Of a DNA stretch of 64,000 nt, positions 38,904 to 64,000 are shown in pieces. Source of the DNA: Candidatus Omnitrophota bacterium (lineage in GTDB: Bacteria; Omnitrophota; Gorgyraeia; JACQQV01); assembly GCA_016206785.1 (NCBI GenBank), contig JACQQV010000028.1, positions 5,438-69,437 on the forward strand, given 5' to 3'. The translations under genes were made by a program, and so were the position numbers. How positions within the stretch are numbered: the first letter of the stretch is position 1; every line of letters starts with the position of its first letter. The notes beneath the pieces were generated by a model, which did not search any database, was not told the origin of the DNA, and saw nothing but the letters and a program-made list of their open reading frames with translations.

Positions 38904-39662
38904 ATGGGAAAAATTCCTTTGAGTGTTGTGATTCTGGCGAAGAATGAGGAGAGGGGGATCGCCGATGCCCTTCAAAGCGTCGCTTGGGCCGAGGACGTTG
39001 TGGTCATTGATGATATGAGTAACGACCGGACACCGGAGATCGCAAAACGCCACGGCGCCCGTGTCATTCAAAAGAGGATGGAACTTGAAGGAAAACACCG
39101 CAACGATGCCTATGCCCTTGCGAAACATGAATGGGTTCTTTCTCTGGACGCAGACGAAGAGGTTTCTCCCGCGCTTAAGGCGGAGATCGCAACGGTTTTA
39201 AGCGACGATACCTACGCCGGATATTCGATTCCGCTCCGGAATTATATCGGAGATCAGTGGGTTCGTCATGGCGGTTGGTATCCTGCGGGTAAACTCCGAT
39301 TGTTTCGGAAAGAGAAATTCCGCTATGAAGAGGTGGGGGTCCATCCACGGGCCTTCTGTGACGGAAAGGTGGGAACCCTGAAGGGAGACATCCTCCACAA
39401 GGGGTATCCTGATTTTGGTCACTTCTTGGAGAGTCTCAACCGCCAGACCACGTTGGAGGCGGAGAAATGGTTTCAAGACAAAAGAAAGATGAATTTTTTC
39501 CTCTCTTTCTACAGGGCACTCGACCGTTTCATCCGGACCTATTTTCTGAAGAGGGGATTTCTGGATGGTTTTATCGGGTTCATGGTAGCGCTTTTCGCGT
39601 TTCTGTATCAAATGATGAGCTATGCAAAGTATAGAGACTTAAAACGACGAGACAAACGGTGA
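38904..39662 (+). CDS. family 2 glycosyltransferase (WaaE/KdtX-like or ArnC-like)
   Basis: LSVVILAKNEERGI...VVVIDDMSNDRT...LSLDADEEV (DxD) with a C-terminal amphipathic or hydrophobic tail. Confidence 0.7.
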   Translation: MGKIPLSVVILAKNEERGIADALQSVAWAEDVVVIDDMSNDRTPEIAKRHGARVIQKRMELEGKHRNDAYALAKHEWVLSLDADEEVSPALKAEIATVLSDDTYAGYSIPLRNYIGDQWVRHGGWYPAGKLRLFRKEKFRYEEVGVHPRAFCDGKVGTLKGDILHKGYPDFGHFLESLNRQTTLEAEKWFQDKRKMNFFLSFYRALDRFIRTYFLKRGFLDGFIGFMVALFAFLYQMMSYAKYRDLKRRDKR

Positions 39663-41737
39663 TAACGGCATTGGGTCACGTACTTCTTTTTTCCGGGATG
39701 AACGCGATGGTCGCCGCAACGACTTTTACTCTGGCAAAGTCTCTCTTTTCTTTGAAGGGAGGGAGAGACCTTCTCCTCGCAAGTTTCCTTTTGTATTTGG
39801 CAGAGATCTTCACTGTGGAACTTTTCTGGAGCACCTGGAATCGGATGCGCCTCCTCCCCATTCTTGGGACCGTTTCCCTCCTTTTTCTAGTCACGATTCT
39901 TTTTGGGCGGAGAAAAGCGGAGTCTTCCATTTCCAAGGAGTTTCAAGAGTGTCTTGGATGGATCACTCGGAATCGCATACTTCTTTTCACGGCATCGGTC
40001 CTTTTAGGTTTTTTGGTTACCAAGGTCATTTACAACCTCCGATATCCGCCGCTTGGCTGGGATTCGATCGGCTACCACCTCGTTTTCCCCGTGGAGTGGT
40101 TGAAACGGGGGAGAATTTGGTTTTATCAAGTCGTTTTTTCCGATCCTTCCCCCTCTTATTATCCTTTTATGGGAGGCCTCTATTATTTCTGGCTTCTCCT
40201 CCCGTTCCGAAATGCTTTCATGGCAGACCTCGGCCAACTTCCGTTTTATCTGGCTCTTCTCCTCGCGACCTATGGATTTTCTCGACGGATCGGCCTCGAT
40301 CGAGAGATCTCTCTCTATGGAGCTTTTCTATTCGGCCTGATCCCCAATGTCTTAAAACAGGTGGAAATCAGTTATGTCGATTTAATCATCGCCTCTTACT
40401 TTATGAGTGCTCTCTATTTTCTCTCTCTTCTAAGCCGGGAATGGAATTTTTCCCACCTCTTCTTTGTCTCACTTGCTTCAGGACTTTTAATCGGTACGAA
40501 AACCCACGGTCTCCTATGGTTCGCCCTCCTCTGTCCCTATTTTTTGGGAGTCGCGGTCAAGCACTTCCGTCGAAAGGGGGAAACCTTCCTTTTATATGGA
40601 GCCACTCTCCTCGGCGTGATACTTCTTTTCGGAGGGTTGAGTTATATACGCAATTATCTTTTGACCCAAAACATCACATATCCGATCTCTCTTCAGATAG
40701 GCCCTTATTTGGCAAAAGGTATCATTTCCTATGCGGATTATCGCTATAATGCGCATGGCGCTTTCCGTTGGGAGGAATTTTACTTTCATAACGGATTGGG
40801 GGTACAGCTGTTGCTTCTCATCACACCGGGACTTTTTCTGGCCCTATGGATGGAATTTTGGAAGAAAAAAGCGGACCTTGAAAGGGTGTACTGGGTTTCT
40901 CTCCCTTTTTTAATCTTTCTCGTTTTTTTGTTCGTAAATCCCTTTCCGGGGAACGAGCGTTATATCTATCATGGTCTTGCCTTGGGTTGTGTCGTTGCTC
41001 TCTCCGTTTTTGATCGATTGTTTCCGAAAAAAGTCGTACGGATTTTTGTCTTGGTCTGCGTGCTCGGTTCCGCCGCAGAACTTGCAGGCCATTGGGAACT
41101 TTTCTTTTCGCTGCTGGGCGTGGGACTTTTCGTGGGATGGGGAGAGATGTATCGTCGGGGTTTCCTGAGCCGGCGCCTTTCCAAATGGCCGGTCGTTTCC
41201 CTTTGCTCCATACTCGGAATCGCTGCCTTAATTTTCCTAGAAATCCTGTATCGGCAAAACGAGTTTAACCTGTATCCCCGTAGTCAATTCTCAAATTATG
41301 ATACCCGTCTTGCTGAAGCATGGAAATGGGTAAATGAGCACACCTCTTTAACCGGCTCGAAAGTTGCTTATGCGGGTTCCTGCCTTCCTTTCCCCCTTTA
41401 TGGAACCGGTCTTAAAAATGACGTCTCTTATGTCACCGTAAATGGAATACCTCCCAATCTTCATCTTTGCGACGGAGATTACCGTCGGGGGGCACGCTAT
41501 GAAACGTGGGAGAGAATGCTTCTTGAAGGGAAGATAGACCTCCTCATTGTTTATGATATGGTCTACCGACGGAACCTACCTCCTTTTAATCCGCGAAGGG
41601 TTGGTGTGGAAGAATATCCGATCGGTGTTTTTCCGTTGGAGGATGAATGGGCGAGGAATCATCCCGAACGACTGAAACCTGTTTTTCAAAATGAAAGGGT
41701 CCATATTTATACTGTTCAGAAAGAAGGGTTGACATGA
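39659..41737 (+). CDS. large polytopic membrane protein, putative GT-C-fold (ArnT/PMT-like) glycosyltransferase
   Basis: 692 aa; about 12 TM helices followed by a soluble domain of about 150 aa; placed immediately after a GT2 polyprenyl-P-sugar-synthase-like gene, as in ArnC/ArnT pairs. Confidence 0.4.
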   Translation: MITALGHVLLFSGMNAMVAATTFTLAKSLFSLKGGRDLLLASFLLYLAEIFTVELFWSTWNRMRLLPILGTVSLLFLVTILFGRRKAESSISKEFQECLGWITRNRILLFTASVLLGFLVTKVIYNLRYPPLGWDSIGYHLVFPVEWLKRGRIWFYQVVFSDPSPSYYPFMGGLYYFWLLLPFRNAFMADLGQLPFYLALLLATYGFSRRIGLDREISLYGAFLFGLIPNVLKQVEISYVDLIIASYFMSALYFLSLLSREWNFSHLFFVSLASGLLIGTKTHGLLWFALLCPYFLGVAVKHFRRKGETFLLYGATLLGVILLFGGLSYIRNYLLTQNITYPISLQIGPYLAKGIISYADYRYNAHGAFRWEEFYFHNGLGVQLLLLITPGLFLALWMEFWKKKADLERVYWVSLPFLIFLVFLFVNPFPGNERYIYHGLALGCVVALSVFDRLFPKKVVRIFVLVCVLGSAAELAGHWELFFSLLGVGLFVGWGEMYRRGFLSRRLSKWPVVSLCSILGIAALIFLEILYRQNEFNLYPRSQFSNYDTRLAEAWKWVNEHTSLTGSKVAYAGSCLPFPLYGTGLKNDVSYVTVNGIPPNLHLCDGDYRRGARYETWERMLLEGKIDLLIVYDMVYRRNLPPFNPRRVGVEEYPIGVFPLEDEWARNHPERLKPVFQNERVHIYTVQKEGLT

Positions 41738-59771: not shown

Positions 59772-60015
59772 AAGAAAAGATCGACTCTTCGGGAATCTCT
59801 CTTCTGCATCGGTCCTTTTTATCCTTCACGATCTTTTAGAATCAGGAGAAGCAAAACGGGGGGACTTGGGACTCTCGGCCTCCGTGGGGCCCGGATTTGC
59901 GATGGAGGCGGTTCTCCTCCAGTGGTAAGTTATTTCAGTTCCTTGGGAAGGTTCTCGATCTTGGAGGCGAGGATAATAGACGAGTAGAAAGCGGGGCCGA
60001 AGAAAATAGAACCGT

Positions 60016-60068
60016 CCCCTAATTTCTAATTTGCCCTAATTTGGTCCCCTAATTTGCAATATGCAAAT
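60016..60068. repeat. short direct-repeat array (CCCTAATTTG-like, 3-4 copies) ending in a TTGCAATATGCAA palindrome, immediately 3' of the RHS gene
   Basis: tCCCCTAATTTC TAATTTG CCCTAATTTG gTCCCCTAATTTG CAATATGCAAAT read directly from the sequence. Confidence 0.5.
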
Positions 60069-60073
60069 CACCA

Positions 60074-63000
60074 CTATTTTAACCTAGAGATCGTCTGCTG
60101 TATCATCGGTGTCGTAGCAGCTTTTTGTGCCCACTCCGCAGCCTTTATTAAGTGCCGAGAGGTACTTCCTATGGCGATCTGAGCAGCCAACCCTAAACCG
60201 TAGACTAGTGCTGGATTGCTCGTTGCCAAAGCGTAGAGACCATATCCTCCCAATCCTGCCACACTTAGCGCACCTACACCTACAAGACCATAACTGGCAT
60301 AATAACCGGCATAACCAACATAACCCATCTGTTCTTCTGTTAGAAGCTGAGAAGTGTAGCCAGTTGGTGATGCAGTAAGCACCTCCCCATAACGCCTACG
60401 AGGAGGTTGCCAAGCGTATGATGACACTGTCTGTATTGTCCTAAAAGTCGGCCTTCGCCGATACGACCTTCGCCGAGATGGCCTTCTTACCCTACCATAT
60501 CCCTTTCTAGGTTTCTTTGACTTCAGACCTAGCGTGTCCGTATTATTCTGTGGATTGTTTCCTACATAAGTATATCCATTGCCGTAATTCACAGAATCTT
60601 GCCACATCCCTTCGGGGTCGCGCTGGAGGAAGCGGCCGGTTGATGGTTCATAGTACCGATTCTTAAAATACAGCAGGCCTGATTCGGGATCGGAGCGTTG
60701 ACCGGTGAAGCGGTAGCGGTTGCCGGTCGGTGTGGTGGTTGATACGACAGCACTACCATAGGCGTCGTAGTCGTACCGTTCAGCGACGACACCGCTCGCA
60801 TCAGTGATTGCCTCCACATGCTGGAGTGGGTTCTGGTGGTAGAAGAAAGTTTCGTTTGACTCGAAGGCGCCATTTCCACTAAGGTCCTGCTTGGTCTGGA
60901 GGTGGTGATCATCGCCTAGACCGTCGACATACTGGGCTTTCAATTGGCCAGCTCCATCACGCTCCTCGATCACCGACCAGCGGTTGTAGAAGTAAAGCCG
61001 GGTTTCATTGACTCCACCCAAGCCTTGAACATTACGGAACACGCGGCGATTCTCCGTGTCGTAGACGTACTTGGCGAACTTGCTTGAATCGGACTTGTCC
61101 TCAATGCGGACGATGCGGTTGTGCACGTCGTAGGTATACGTCCGGGTACCGTCATCCTTGAGATTACCGTTTGCATCATACGTACGGGCGGAGGCGCCGA
61201 CTGTAGTGTAGGCGTTCACGGCATTCGGGGCAAGGGTGGTCGTGGTAAGGGATCCGCCCGCAGGCTGGTCACCCACGCTGCGCCAGTTCTGCGCGCCGTC
61301 GAGCGTCCAGCTTTTCTGCCGTTCGGTGTAGGTGGTAATGGCCGGGTTAGCAAGTTGGTTGTTGACGATGGCAGTAAATTCGCTGCTTAAGCCGGGAACA
61401 TGGAACGAGGACTGCGTCAGGCGCGAGAGCGAGTCATAAGCGAAGATATCGGCCTGTTGGTCACCTTCATGACTAAACTGCTCGTACAATCGGTCACCGG
61501 TTCGATTGTAAGCGTAACGGAGATCGACGACTACGGTACCGGATCGGTCATGGTGGTACCGGATGGGTCGTCGGTCACCGTCATACGTCAAGGCGAGGGA
61601 AACACCGTTTGTAGAGACGTAGTTCTGTGCGAGCGGACGGGTAGGTCCCATGTAGTTGAAAGTGGCGATGTCATTAGCCGGGTCGCTATCAGGAACGATC
61701 AGGTTTCCGGTTCCCGTGCCCGGACCCTCTTCAATCAGGGTCACCCGATCTAACCCATCGAACCCGCGAGTAATCTTCCGGCCATCTGGGTATGTAAGCT
61801 GAATCAGCCGGCCGTCTTGATTGTATTCGTAAGTTACCGTTCTTGCAGGGTCGGCGTTGAGGTTCTGCGTCTGTGAGGTAAGGCGCGAAAGCGAGTCGTA
61901 CGTCGAGGTCACGTAGGCATCGTCGTCCTCTGGGGACCCATCGGAATTATTGGAGAAGGTGACTCTTGATAACCCGTCGAACTGCCAATGATTATTGTGA
62001 ATGCCACTGACGCCCGACCCGAACGTGGTCACCTCTTCATCGATTTTTCTCCCGAGATCGTCGTAGCCTGTGGTGGCCGGACTCGATCGCACTGAACCGT
62101 TGGGGTCGGTGATCTGCGTGACATGATCATCGCGGTCGTAGACATACTGATAGGTGGTATCATCAGCGAAACGCTCAGTCACCAACCGGTTGAGGTCATC
62201 GTAGACGTAGGTCGTTGTGCTGCGCGCTGTGGCGTCGAGCGGATCGTCGTCATCGGTGCGGGACACCACGCGGGAATTCGGATCGAAGTCGTAATCCACC
62301 TGAACTTTGCCGTCCGGATTGTGCGGATTGGACAGATCGAGCGCAGCCCCGCCGATGCCGCCCTCCCTGAGGTCGTAGATTCCCCGGACGAGACGGTTGA
62401 GACCGTCGTACACCTTAGTGACACTATTTCCATCGCTATTGATATCGGTAAAACCGACAGGCGTGGAGCTGAACGGAAAACGATAATTCACATTAGACAC
62501 CGTATCGAGGACCAGAGGTCCTCGGGCATCCGAGGTAAAGACGGCGTTGCCCCGGGAGTCATACTTCGTCCGTGTGGTGTTACCAAGGTTATCGGTTTCG
62601 CGGATCTTGCGGTTGACTGCATCATAAAGTGATACACGCGTGTAGGTCTCATCCGGTGCAGTTGTGGGGGAACGTTCCACTTCGACAATTTGAATCACGT
62701 TTCCATTATCGTCATAGATCGTGGAGCGTTCATTCTGTACGGTGCCCCCTCCGGATTTTGGCAAGGGTTGATCAAGTGTTATTACGACACGGTCAAGACC
62801 GTCATAATGAGTCTCGTTCATATCTCCATCTGGTTCTATCGTGCGAAACAGTTTACTGTTACGATTAAAATGAGAATGGGTGACGTACTCTGAAACTTGA
62901 GGATCATTGGTAGGACCCGGCGTACGAAAATACGCCTGTCGCGCACGGAAGGGGCGATTGAGCTCATCCTCATCTGTATTCGATTCGGACAACCTTTTAT

Positions 63001-64000
63001 TGACTACGCGATCACCCGGAACTCCACGGGTATTGGACCCCACCGGCCCAAACTGAAGGGTTTGGATGCGGTTGTTCTCCGGATCATAATGAGACTCTGA
63101 TTCATACCCCATCGCATCCACCACTCGTATGAGCCGATCATTGCCATCATAAGTATTCGTGGTAACATCACCGCCTTCGGCGTTGGCCTGACCGTTATCT
63201 TCAGCATCAATAGAGGTGATAAGGTTCTTATTGCCATCGTAATTCTTTGTCGAGGTGGCGGTGCTGCTTGTCGTCGAGAACTGGGTGATGTCGATATTCT
63301 CATGGGCCTTACCGCTGGCGTGAAGTGCAATGAACACTGCGTCAATCCCGCCGCGCGATTCTTTGAATAGGAGATTCCGCTCGTCAAACACAGTCGCTGT
63401 GATATTGTTCGGCTGCCGTTCGGGATTACCGCCCGGGAGCGTTGCCACCGGGCTAACCGTGAGTACCCGGTTCTGATTTTTATCATAGGCATACAAAGTA
63501 GTGATCGATTCGGTCGGGCCAACTTCGCCATTACTCACTTCGCGAACCTCGGCGATCTGTTTATCGAGAATATCATATTCCTTGGTGGTGGTTAGAAATG
63601 GATTGGCTATTACGGATTGGTTATTCTCGTCGTTATTCTCCACATCCTCCTGAATGAGGTTGTCATTCGCGTCGTAGAAGAGCACCCGTTCGTAGTTCAA
63701 ACTGGATAAAACATTGTTCGGCTCTTCACCATTTTCGTTGAACGAGGCCCCGACCACACCGGTGGTTTCCCGGATGAGTTGATTGAGCGAATTGATTTCG
63801 TAGGTAGTAGTAATCCCACGGCCGTCCGTCACGGATGTCACATTCCCGACCCGATCATACGTGTACGATTCTTTGGCATTTACATATTCCGCAGTACGGC
63901 TTCGTCGGCTCGTACCGGCGTTTGTGATCGGACTTGCTAAGGTAGGATCATGATCATGGATGACCCTCCGTTTGTAGCCACCCGTTGAGGGATCTGCTCC
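60074..64000 (-). CDS. RHS/YD-repeat polymorphic toxin (N-terminus off-window) with unrecognised C-terminal toxin domain
   Basis: The minus-strand frame is open to the window edge with no stop between 63842 and 64000. Dozens of YD repeats are present (YDxxGNxxxxxD, e.g. YDANGNLKDDGTRTYTYDVHNRIVRIED). The RHS core ...LLYFKNRYYEPSTGRFLQRDPEGMW...NPQNNTDTLGL ends in the DPxGL-type cleavage motif. After it come about 190 aa, KSKKPRKGYGRVRRPSRRRSYRRRP... then GYVGYAGYYASYGLVGVGALSVAGLGGYGLYALA... Confidence 0.9.
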   Translation of the reverse strand, partial: GADPSTGGYKRRVIHDHDPTLASPITNAGTSRRSRTAEYVNAKESYTYDRVGNVTSVTDGRGITTTYEINSLNQLIRETTGVVGASFNENGEEPNNVLSSLNYERVLFYDANDNLIQEDVENNDENNQSVIANPFLTTTKEYDILDKQIAEVREVSNGEVGPTESITTLYAYDKNQNRVLTVSPVATLPGGNPERQPNNITATVFDERNLLFKESRGGIDAVFIALHASGKAHENIDITQFSTTSSTATSTKNYDGNKNLITSIDAEDNGQANAEGGDVTTNTYDGNDRLIRVVDAMGYESESHYDPENNRIQTLQFGPVGSNTRGVPGDRVVNKRLSESNTDEDELNRPFRARQAYFRTPGPTNDPQVSEYVTHSHFNRNSKLFRTIEPDGDMNETHYDGLDRVVITLDQPLPKSGGGTVQNERSTIYDDNGNVIQIVEVERSPTTAPDETYTRVSLYDAVNRKIRETDNLGNTTRTKYDSRGNAVFTSDARGPLVLDTVSNVNYRFPFSSTPVGFTDINSDGNSVTKVYDGLNRLVRGIYDLREGGIGGAALDLSNPHNPDGKVQVDYDFDPNSRVVSRTDDDDPLDATARSTTTYVYDDLNRLVTERFADDTTYQYVYDRDDHVTQITDPNGSVRSSPATTGYDDLGRKIDEEVTTFGSGVSGIHNNHWQFDGLSRVTFSNNSDGSPEDDDAYVTSTYDSLSRLTSQTQNLNADPARTVTYEYNQDGRLIQLTYPDGRKITRGFDGLDRVTLIEEGPGTGTGNLIVPDSDPANDIATFNYMGPTRPLAQNYVSTNGVSLALTYDGDRRPIRYHHDRSGTVVVDLRYAYNRTGDRLYEQFSHEGDQQADIFAYDSLSRLTQSSFHVPGLSSEFTAIVNNQLANPAITTYTERQKSWTLDGAQNWRSVGDQPAGGSLTTTTLAPNAVNAYTTVGASARTYDANGNLKDDGTRTYTYDVHNRIVRIEDKSDSSKFAKYVYDTENRRVFRNVQGLGGVNETRLYFYNRWSVIEERDGAGQLKAQYVDGLGDDHHLQTKQDLSGNGAFESNETFFYHQNPLQHVEAITDASGVVAERYDYDAYGSAVVSTTTPTGNRYRFTGQRSDPESGLLYFKNRYYEPSTGRFLQRDPEGMWQDSVNYGNGYTYVGNNPQNNTDTLGLKSKKPRKGYGRVRRPSRRRSYRRRPTFRTIQTVSSYAWQPPRRRYGEVLTASPTGYTSQLLTEEQMGYVGYAGYYASYGLVGVGALSVAGLGGYGLYALATSNPALVYGLGLAAQIAIGSTSRHLIKAAEWAQKAATTPMIQQTISRLK

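Follow-up and report, generated by a model that had tools for sequence, protein, structure and literature searches.

A 64,000-nt stretch of DNA from a Candidatus Omnitrophota bacterium (assembly GCA_016206785.1, contig JACQQV010000028.1, positions 5,438 to 69,437 of the forward strand; below, the window) ends inside a minus-strand RHS polymorphic-toxin gene, which is intact within the window and whose C-terminal tip is the subject of this analysis. Two points are unusual about it: the tip joins an extreme Arg-rich arm to a long uncharged segment, and the immunity gene is missing. The features of the gene, from the shell to the stop codon, are the following (GC3, GC content at third codon positions; aa, amino acids; pI, isoelectric point):

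60524–64000, minus strand: RHS/YD-repeat shell with the RHS-associated core (PF05593, TIGR03696), the C-terminal 1159 core codons
60524–60619, minus strand: aspartyl autoprotease motif DPEG-X23-DTLGL, with DPEG at 60619–60608 and DTLGL at 60538–60524
60074–60601, minus strand: low-GC3 module comprising ~25 codons of the core end together with tip and stop, delimited by a maximum-likelihood GC3 change-point
60389–60523, minus strand: Arg-rich cationic arm, tip residues 1–45 (14 Arg, 4 Lys, no acidic residue; net charge +18, pI 12)
60329–60388, minus strand: polar acidic linker, tip residues 46–65 (net charge −3)
60158–60328, minus strand: uncharged segment of 57 aa, tip residues 66–122 (13 Gly, 10 Ala, 8 Tyr, 8 Leu)
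60077–60157, minus strand: two putative basic amphipathic helices, tip residues 123–149 (net charge +4), followed by the stop at 60076–60074

The frame of the gene is uninterrupted from the window edge at 64000 to the stop at 60074–60076 (1308 codons). Its parent protein, P0001, was identified by phmmer as MBI4436635.1, the hypothetical protein HY590_04405 from a 74.5-kb contig of a Candidatus Omnitrophica/Omnitrophota metagenome-assembled genome (MAG), and has 2029 aa in total; the core part in the window is identical to its residues 722–1880, and the 5′ 721 codons lie past the window edge. RHS repeats of PF05593 were recognized in nine stretches of the window part (E 1.6e-26) and in 15 stretches of the full protein (E 7.1e-44), accompanied by a match to TIGR01643 (E 1.5e-17). 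The RHS-associated core TIGR03696 scored 68.4 bits (cutoff 32.5) at aa 1078–1159 of the window frame, the last residues being ...NNPQNNTDTLGL, and the DUF6531 plug region (PF20148, E 5.9e-13) was found beyond the window at P0001 residues 123–194. The PF05593 and TIGR03696 matches, together with the open frame, bear out the RHS identity given in a preliminary description of this DNA, and, with no stop in the 1308 window codons or in the 2029 of the annotated protein, the frame disruption that was considered there was not observed. Moreover, the same locus with an identical tip is present in a separate assembly, the Logan contig L001 (run SRR12113385), which stops within the RHS gene. Across 7.5 kb, the sole difference between the MAG and this contig is a 6-nt insertion or deletion (indel) in the repeats of the 3′ spacer, and the junctions described here are therefore not one assembler's artefact.

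The core ends in a two-aspartate autoprotease motif, whose role is known from work on Tse5 and further members of the Rhs family (PMC10684867). Both Asp residues are retained. Measured against the class pattern DPxG-(X18-23)-DPxGL, the spacing is within the range (X23 is common to 11 relatives) and the Pro of the second motif is replaced by Thr. Cleavage is predicted after the Leu of DTLGL, at 60524/60523, and the tip behind it comprises 149 aa (60523–60077, minus strand). In 164 of 164 core relatives, the alignment ends at DPxGL and the tips are unrelated. The preliminary description had the tip begin after DTLGL with an Arg-rich and then a Gly/Ala/Tyr-rich stretch, which is the case, but its length of ~190 aa was overstated by ~40 aa: the interval 60074–60640 taken for the tip includes the last 39 core codons. 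Although wrong for the tip itself, that interval roughly equals the imported low-GC3 module. A second degenerate core-end motif inside the tip, suggested by BLASTP (GLYALATSNPALVYGLGL compared with NLYAYVGNNPVNxxDPLGL), was rejected as chance; a hidden Markov model (HMM) of 51 core ends gave it −1.9 bits, and ~10% of shuffles equal this score.

Codon usage is foreign in the tip and in the last ~25 core codons, which together make up one block. The tip has a GC3 of 0.383, whereas that of the core is 0.596 and that of 51 neighboring genes 0.545 ± 0.04; the tip value lies below every in-frame window of the core and below 99.85% of 647 in-frame windows from the neighboring genes. For Arg, the core uses CGC/CGG codons and the tip AGG/AGA. 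The change-point in GC3 was located at codon 1134 (~window position 60600), between the two Asp motifs and 25 codons upstream of the cleavage site. Bulk GC was dropped as a marker of the module in favor of GC3 because its value in the tip is unremarkable (0.490, compared to 0.532 in the core, with 18% of same-size core windows equally low). The windowed comparison of GC and codon usage that had been proposed thus separated tip from core by GC3 and Arg codon choice, and the greater AT-richness noticed at first sight holds strongly at third codon positions but only weakly for bulk GC. A change-point inside the conserved core end fits the footprint expected of tip replacement by recombination: the low-GC3 block would have been acquired through recombination in this end from a related RHS gene, which suggests that the tip was once part of such a gene in a genome with a lower GC3.

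The tip has a mass of 16.4 kDa, a pI of 10.8 and a net charge of +19, and ~100 of its 149 residues belong to the Arg arm and the uncharged segment. Gathering of 18 Arg + Lys within 45 residues was reached in 0 of 20,000 shuffles, and the charge-free run of 58 residues had a shuffle P of ~5e-6. The uncharged segment, with a grand average of hydropathy of 0.89 and split by TSNP, is a candidate membrane-inserting helical hairpin, and the amphipathic helices behind it have a hydrophobic moment of 0.55–0.57. Its glycines are spaced i+3, for example in GYVGYAGYY, and its sole small-residue ladder is A105-G109-A113-A117-T121. The repeated GxxxG spacing and the glycine zipper initially attributed to this part were not confirmed, as there are 0 GxxxG motifs in the uncharged segment, and the tip is not a canonical glycine zipper. 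Two single-sequence AlphaFold runs reached a predicted local distance difference test (pLDDT) of 60 and 67 and a predicted template modeling score (pTM) of 0.22 and 0.30. Both low-confidence models were all-helical over residues 63–148, with 4–5 helices in the last ~90 aa, whereby the Arg arm was predicted, again at low confidence, to be without regular structure. A Foldseek search of PDB with the low-confidence model returned nothing at E ≤ 0.001 and only noise.

The reading frame of the tip would stay open over 149 codons by chance with P = 2.5e-4 at the local base composition, and each of the other five frames across it contains 5–12 stops. On host codon likelihood, it is the best-scoring frame for residues 46–149 but not for the Arg arm. 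Both low-complexity segments carry short tandem repeats in frame: a 15-nt unit repeated 2.5 times at 60449–60486, encoding SRRRS/YRRRP in the Arg arm, and 9/12-nt units at 60290–60325, encoding GYVGYAGYY in the uncharged segment. Replication slippage may have helped to build the two segments.

We read the tip, tentatively and with somewhat less than even confidence, as a non-enzymatic membrane-active cargo working like Tse5-CT. The latter is a disordered, encapsulated cargo of 149 aa and ~16 kDa with no function predicted from its sequence, which inserts into lipid on its own and makes ion-selective pores (PMC9637101, PMC10684867). An enzymatic role appears less suitable since the cargo would be too short and of too low complexity for an enzyme. 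Judged by composition, charge layout and the analogy with Tse5-CT, pore formation or depolarization is the most plausible mechanism. Self-cleavage after DTLGL would leave the 149-aa cargo loose inside the shell. On arrival at a target, the cargo would bind anionic lipid through its Arg arm and amphipathic helices. Insertion of the marginally hydrophobic segment as a helical hairpin would be favored by the inside-negative potential across the membrane, and the inserted oligomers would leak ions and depolarize the target, an effect demonstrated experimentally for Tse5-CT. Encapsulation in the Rhs shell makes cytoplasmic immunity unnecessary (PMC12744356); with the producer shielded in this way, immunity would be needed only against toxin arriving from kin. 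Such shielding could explain why there is no adjacent immunity gene, which might be located elsewhere, lost, or unneeded if prey is the target.

Unclassifiable RHS tips are common, and this one had no significant match in Pfam, NCBIfam, PADLOC and PHROGs. None of the catalogued toxin tips in Pfam (nucleases, deaminases, ADP-ribosyltransferases, peptidases, Ntox/Tox) came above threshold, and a phmmer search of PDB chain sequences, with the Tse5 entries 8cp6 and 9i9y in the library, yielded nothing at E ≤ 10. The earlier impression that the tip fits no known toxin family was thus borne out in these four collections and in PDB sequences, and the search by HMM and structure of the residues after DTLGL, which had been advised, ended with no family and no confident fold. 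An exhaustive phmmer search of 1.84 billion representative proteins, in which long RHS proteins are covered as 50%-identity representatives and the tips of non-representative members are not visible, retrieved only P0001 itself and a spurious repeat protein (P0002). Nothing was found in GTDB genomes, JGI metagenomes, plasmids and phages. A word-index search likewise found no homologue among proteins of ≤644 aa, the range it covers, which does not include the 2029-aa P0001 although the protein is in the collection.

The only Pfam family at E ≤ 1 was TT_ORF1 (E 0.025, below its cutoff), the Arg-rich nucleic-acid-binding arm of TT-virus ORF1. As the only weak family match, it would suit a cytoplasmic toxin, in which the Arg arm, whose 45 residues include 14 Arg and 4 Lys, attaches to nucleic acids or to ribosomes in the manner of protamines or arginine-rich motifs and the uncharged segment is only an entry device. 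Precedents for such delivery modules are the membrane-permeabilising segment at the N-terminus of Tde1 (PMC10240207) and the toxins of contact-dependent inhibition (CDI), which are split into an entry part and an effector part (PMC11630599). These precedents, however, pair the translocation module with a folded catalytic or ionophore domain, none of which is present here, and the TT_ORF1 match reflects composition only. Since polycationic peptides are themselves membrane-active, the cytoplasmic explanation largely merges with that of a membrane-active cargo, and as a separate alternative it is improbable.

For 48 core relatives, the net charge of the tip does not exceed +10 over 45 residues and uncharged runs extend to at most 49 residues, which makes this tip an outlier in both its cationic charge (+18 in 45 aa) and its uncharged run. 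Three relatives (P0069, P0086 and P0007, the last from an Omnitrophota MAG) belong with it to one RHS core family, matching over the core at E 1e-14 to 1e-33, and likewise have long uncharged runs in the tip, theirs being of 45–49 aa. Their tips are nevertheless unrelated in sequence to the one described here and have no Arg arm, and their RHS stops are accompanied, at −14 to +19 nt, by a polytopic membrane ORF of 81–116 aa.

A domain and leader scan of the full P0001 detected no PAAR, LXG or signal peptide, and PAAR, VgrG or type VI secretion system (T6SS) genes were not seen around the locus (the window and P0001). Secretion-system context was absent from the 60 kb of the window, which holds polysaccharide-synthesis, PriA and Opp transporter genes instead. 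A full-length homologue with 39% identity (L003:2135–6739) starts with a 337-aa leader that comprises a signal/anchor as well as TSP3 repeats. The RHS gene may be 5′-truncated, split or mis-started. The adhesin-type N-terminal TSP3 repeats of relatives in this RHS subfamily also bear on another explanation, namely that the tip is a non-toxin tail by which a surface RHS protein is anchored in the membrane, aggregates or adheres, the aggregation being like that of the surface-aggregating CdzC/CdzD. The low-complexity Gly/Tyr repeat GYVGYAGYY with its i+3 spacing could self-associate, basic residues lie on both sides of the uncharged segment as they do around membrane anchors, and the variant DTLGL might not cleave. 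We consider this explanation very improbable. Structures solved for Rhs and Tc proteins place the sequence past the C-terminal plug inside the shell (PMC10684867), where it would not be able to anchor or stick unless released, and a composition shift with a boundary at the core end is what typically marks a swapped toxin tip.

Downstream of the RHS stop, the locus continues with two features:

59932–60073, no strand: 142-bp spacer 3′ of the RHS stop, GC 0.44, with no open reading frame (ORF) of immunity size
59785–59931, plus strand: remnant of a gene similar to 3-oxoacyl-acyl-carrier-protein synthase III (KAS III) or type III polyketide synthases, the last ~46 codons and stop, convergent with the RHS gene

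Beginning 13 nt past the RHS stop, the spacer contains 3–4 copies of CCCTAATTTG (CAAATTAGGG on the RHS strand) at 60014–60064. The corresponding stretch of contig L001 (5821–5870) has one more complete CCCTAATTTG copy, which is the aforementioned 6-nt indel. Elsewhere in the window, the CAAATTAGGG motif shows no enrichment. The spacer lacks terminator-like sites and Rfam matches, and its RNA fold is ordinary (z = 0.62). The KAS III remnant was recognized by PF08541 (E 7.7e-11, profile positions 45–90 of 90) and PF02797 (E 1.2e-6); its 5′ part is deleted directly after the stop (59771) of a transglutaminase-like gene. With a host-like GC3 of 0.51, the remnant is native and lies outside the imported tip module. 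The ~300-bp gap in which the preliminary description saw no minus-strand ORF of notable length indeed has none above 21 codons, but it is not empty, as 59785–59928 on the plus strand belongs to this remnant. The co-directional immunity gene expected directly downstream is absent from the locus, as had been suspected. No other copy of the tip or of the core end was found in the window. An approach to ancestral synteny through the neighboring transglutaminase-like gene was abandoned as not informative, for it yielded one 34%-identical Verrucomicrobiota locus only. Close to the RHS stop, a single small ORF is membrane-like: a 42-codon, TTG-start ORF on the plus strand (60054–60182), which is antisense to the last 36 tip codons, encodes a hydrophobic peptide (…NLEIVCCIIGVVAAFCAHSAAFI…) and is probably a chance ORF.

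Several observations weigh against a membrane-active cargo. The usual transmembrane threshold (a Kyte–Doolittle, KD, value of 1.6) is reached by no 19-residue window of the tip. The best 19-mer of the uncharged segment has a KD value of 1.44 and ~+3.8 kcal/mol on the summed Hessa scale, a marginal hydrophobicity which would be as expected for a toxin that needs to stay soluble before insertion. GxxxG motifs are absent from residues 66–122, compared to 2.6 expected from shuffles, and small-xxx-small motifs are depleted in the uncharged segment (8 versus 12.6 expected from shuffles), whereas the tips of the three relatives with long uncharged runs contain 2–9 GxxxG. Neither homology to characterized membrane toxins nor a confident structure was found, and only one sequence of the tip is known, identical in the MAG and the Logan contig. 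The second Asp motif has Thr where 51 of 51 relatives have Pro. At the annotated N-terminus of P0001, there is no delivery domain or signal peptide; this terminus (residues 1–115) starts inside a weakly matched Flg_new_2 domain, so that export can only be presumed. On the minus strand of 59772–60073, no immunity-like ORF is present, the longest one being of 21 codons and charged rather than hydrophobic. In comparison, among four relatives whose tips are hydrophobic, three possess an ORF for a polytopic membrane protein of 81–116 aa at −14 to +19 nt from the stop, and the lack of any such ORF here is a real departure from the local rule. The membrane ORFs of these relatives, at L002 (Omnitrophota MAG GCA_030692045.1), L005 and L006, belong to no Pfam family. 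The combination of a hydrophobic RHS tip with a small membrane ORF looks like a recurrent, uncatalogued membrane toxin/immunity pairing.

Some of these features might also mean that the tip is decaying or neutral, either as an imported tip or as a tail built in part by slippage which is no longer an active toxin. Decay would explain how the gene persists without an immunity partner at the locus, and the orphan status of the tip, with only P0001 itself among 1.84 billion representatives, points in the same direction, as do the exchange of Pro for Thr in the cleavage motif (0 of 51 relatives), the short tandem DNA repeats in both low-complexity segments and the Arg-arm frame that is not the best-scoring one on host codon usage. 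An N-terminus that lacks a signal peptide and starts in a weakly matched domain, where the homologue has a 337-aa leader, would likewise suit a degenerating gene. Moreover, the adjoining KAS III gene is a deletion remnant, and the locus has thus undergone deletions. Still, decay is opposed by a frame without stops over 1308 window codons and 2029 in total, by a tip frame that is unlikely to be open by chance (P = 2.5e-4) and by an extreme and ordered charge layout (P ~5e-6) that looks selected; both catalytic Asp are kept, and the locus is identical in two assemblies. Overall, a decaying tip is unlikely, though as the main rival it is less so than the cytoplasmic toxin or the non-toxin tail, and a membrane-active cargo remains our preferred reading.

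The rest of the window is occupied largely by a very large polysaccharide/glycoconjugate biosynthesis cluster from position 128 to ~44500 on the plus strand, with ~40 same-strand and often overlapping genes. It includes glycosyltransferases of families GT1, GT2 and GT4, a methyltransferase-GT2 fusion, a Wzx-like flippase, two asparagine-synthase paralogues and one carbamoyltransferase. A 692-aa ORF in this cluster (39659–41737) has no Pfam match.

Should the tip be active, it would be a second, unrelated case after Tse5 of an Rhs shell with a membrane-inserting cargo instead of an enzyme, and such cargo would not need to rely on a glycine zipper. Should it be inactive, it would exemplify how tip swapping leaves an orphaned, decaying tail. 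Omnitrophota are considered predatory ultra-small bacteria (bioRxiv 10.1101/2023.11.21.568195), and a missing immunity gene in a phylum thought to be predatory offers a concrete case for asking if polymorphic toxins hit prey besides kin. The most far-reaching form of this idea, that the tip is the first representative of a new RHS cargo class, an immunity-less, non-enzymatic polycationic membrane toxin which joins an Arg-rich arm to an uncharged helical hairpin without a glycine zipper and which a predatory Omnitrophota nanobacterium uses on prey and not on kin, is a long shot. In that case an immunity gene would be superfluous, as the shell guards the producer from within and siblings are not attacked. 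For Gly-rich hydrophobic stretches in general, the spacing should be checked before the glycine-zipper label is applied.

As judged from its sequence, the tip is outside the glycine-zipper toxins, the Tse5-CT family and every catalogued tip family. With the glycine-zipper toxins (Tse4, TspA, EsxX/TelE, CdzC/CdzD and the transmembrane region of VacA), it has in common a Gly-rich, uncharged and marginally hydrophobic segment (PMC12744356, PMC10240207, PMC5380434). The zipper is, however, defined by (G/A/S)xxxGxxxG or GxxxGxxx(G/S/T) (PMC12744356), and this defining motif is absent here, with 0 GxxxG and glycines at i+3. The CDI ionophores of the CdiA-CT EC93 family resemble the tip as non-enzymatic, two-part C-terminal toxins (PMC11630599), in which a variable N-terminal part is followed by a small, all-helical membrane-spanning part, corresponding to the 4–5 low-confidence helices here. 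They differ in being carried by a CdiA filament with a VENN motif and not by an RHS shell, and no sequence match was found. Moreover, a 72–100-aa CdiI immunity gene with two transmembrane segments (2-TM) is always present there and absent here, and their five-helix bundle is not confidently predicted for the tip.

Tse5 of Pseudomonas aeruginosa (PA2684, RhsP1; immunity Tsi5) differs from the system described here in its cargo, which has no similarity to the tip detectable by phmmer against PDB, and in its surroundings, as no PAAR/VgrG/T6SS context was seen for the RHS gene of this Omnitrophota host in the window and P0001 and there is no 2-TM (Tsi5-like) immunity gene downstream. The +18 Arg arm is far more extreme as well. 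What the two share is an Rhs shell with a two-Asp motif, DPXG-X19-DPXG in Tse5 and DPEG-X23-DTLG here, and a cargo of 149 aa and ~16 kDa for which no enzymatic function is predicted. The cargo appears disordered or helical with hydrophobic and amphipathic segments in either case, and both shells can shield the producer.

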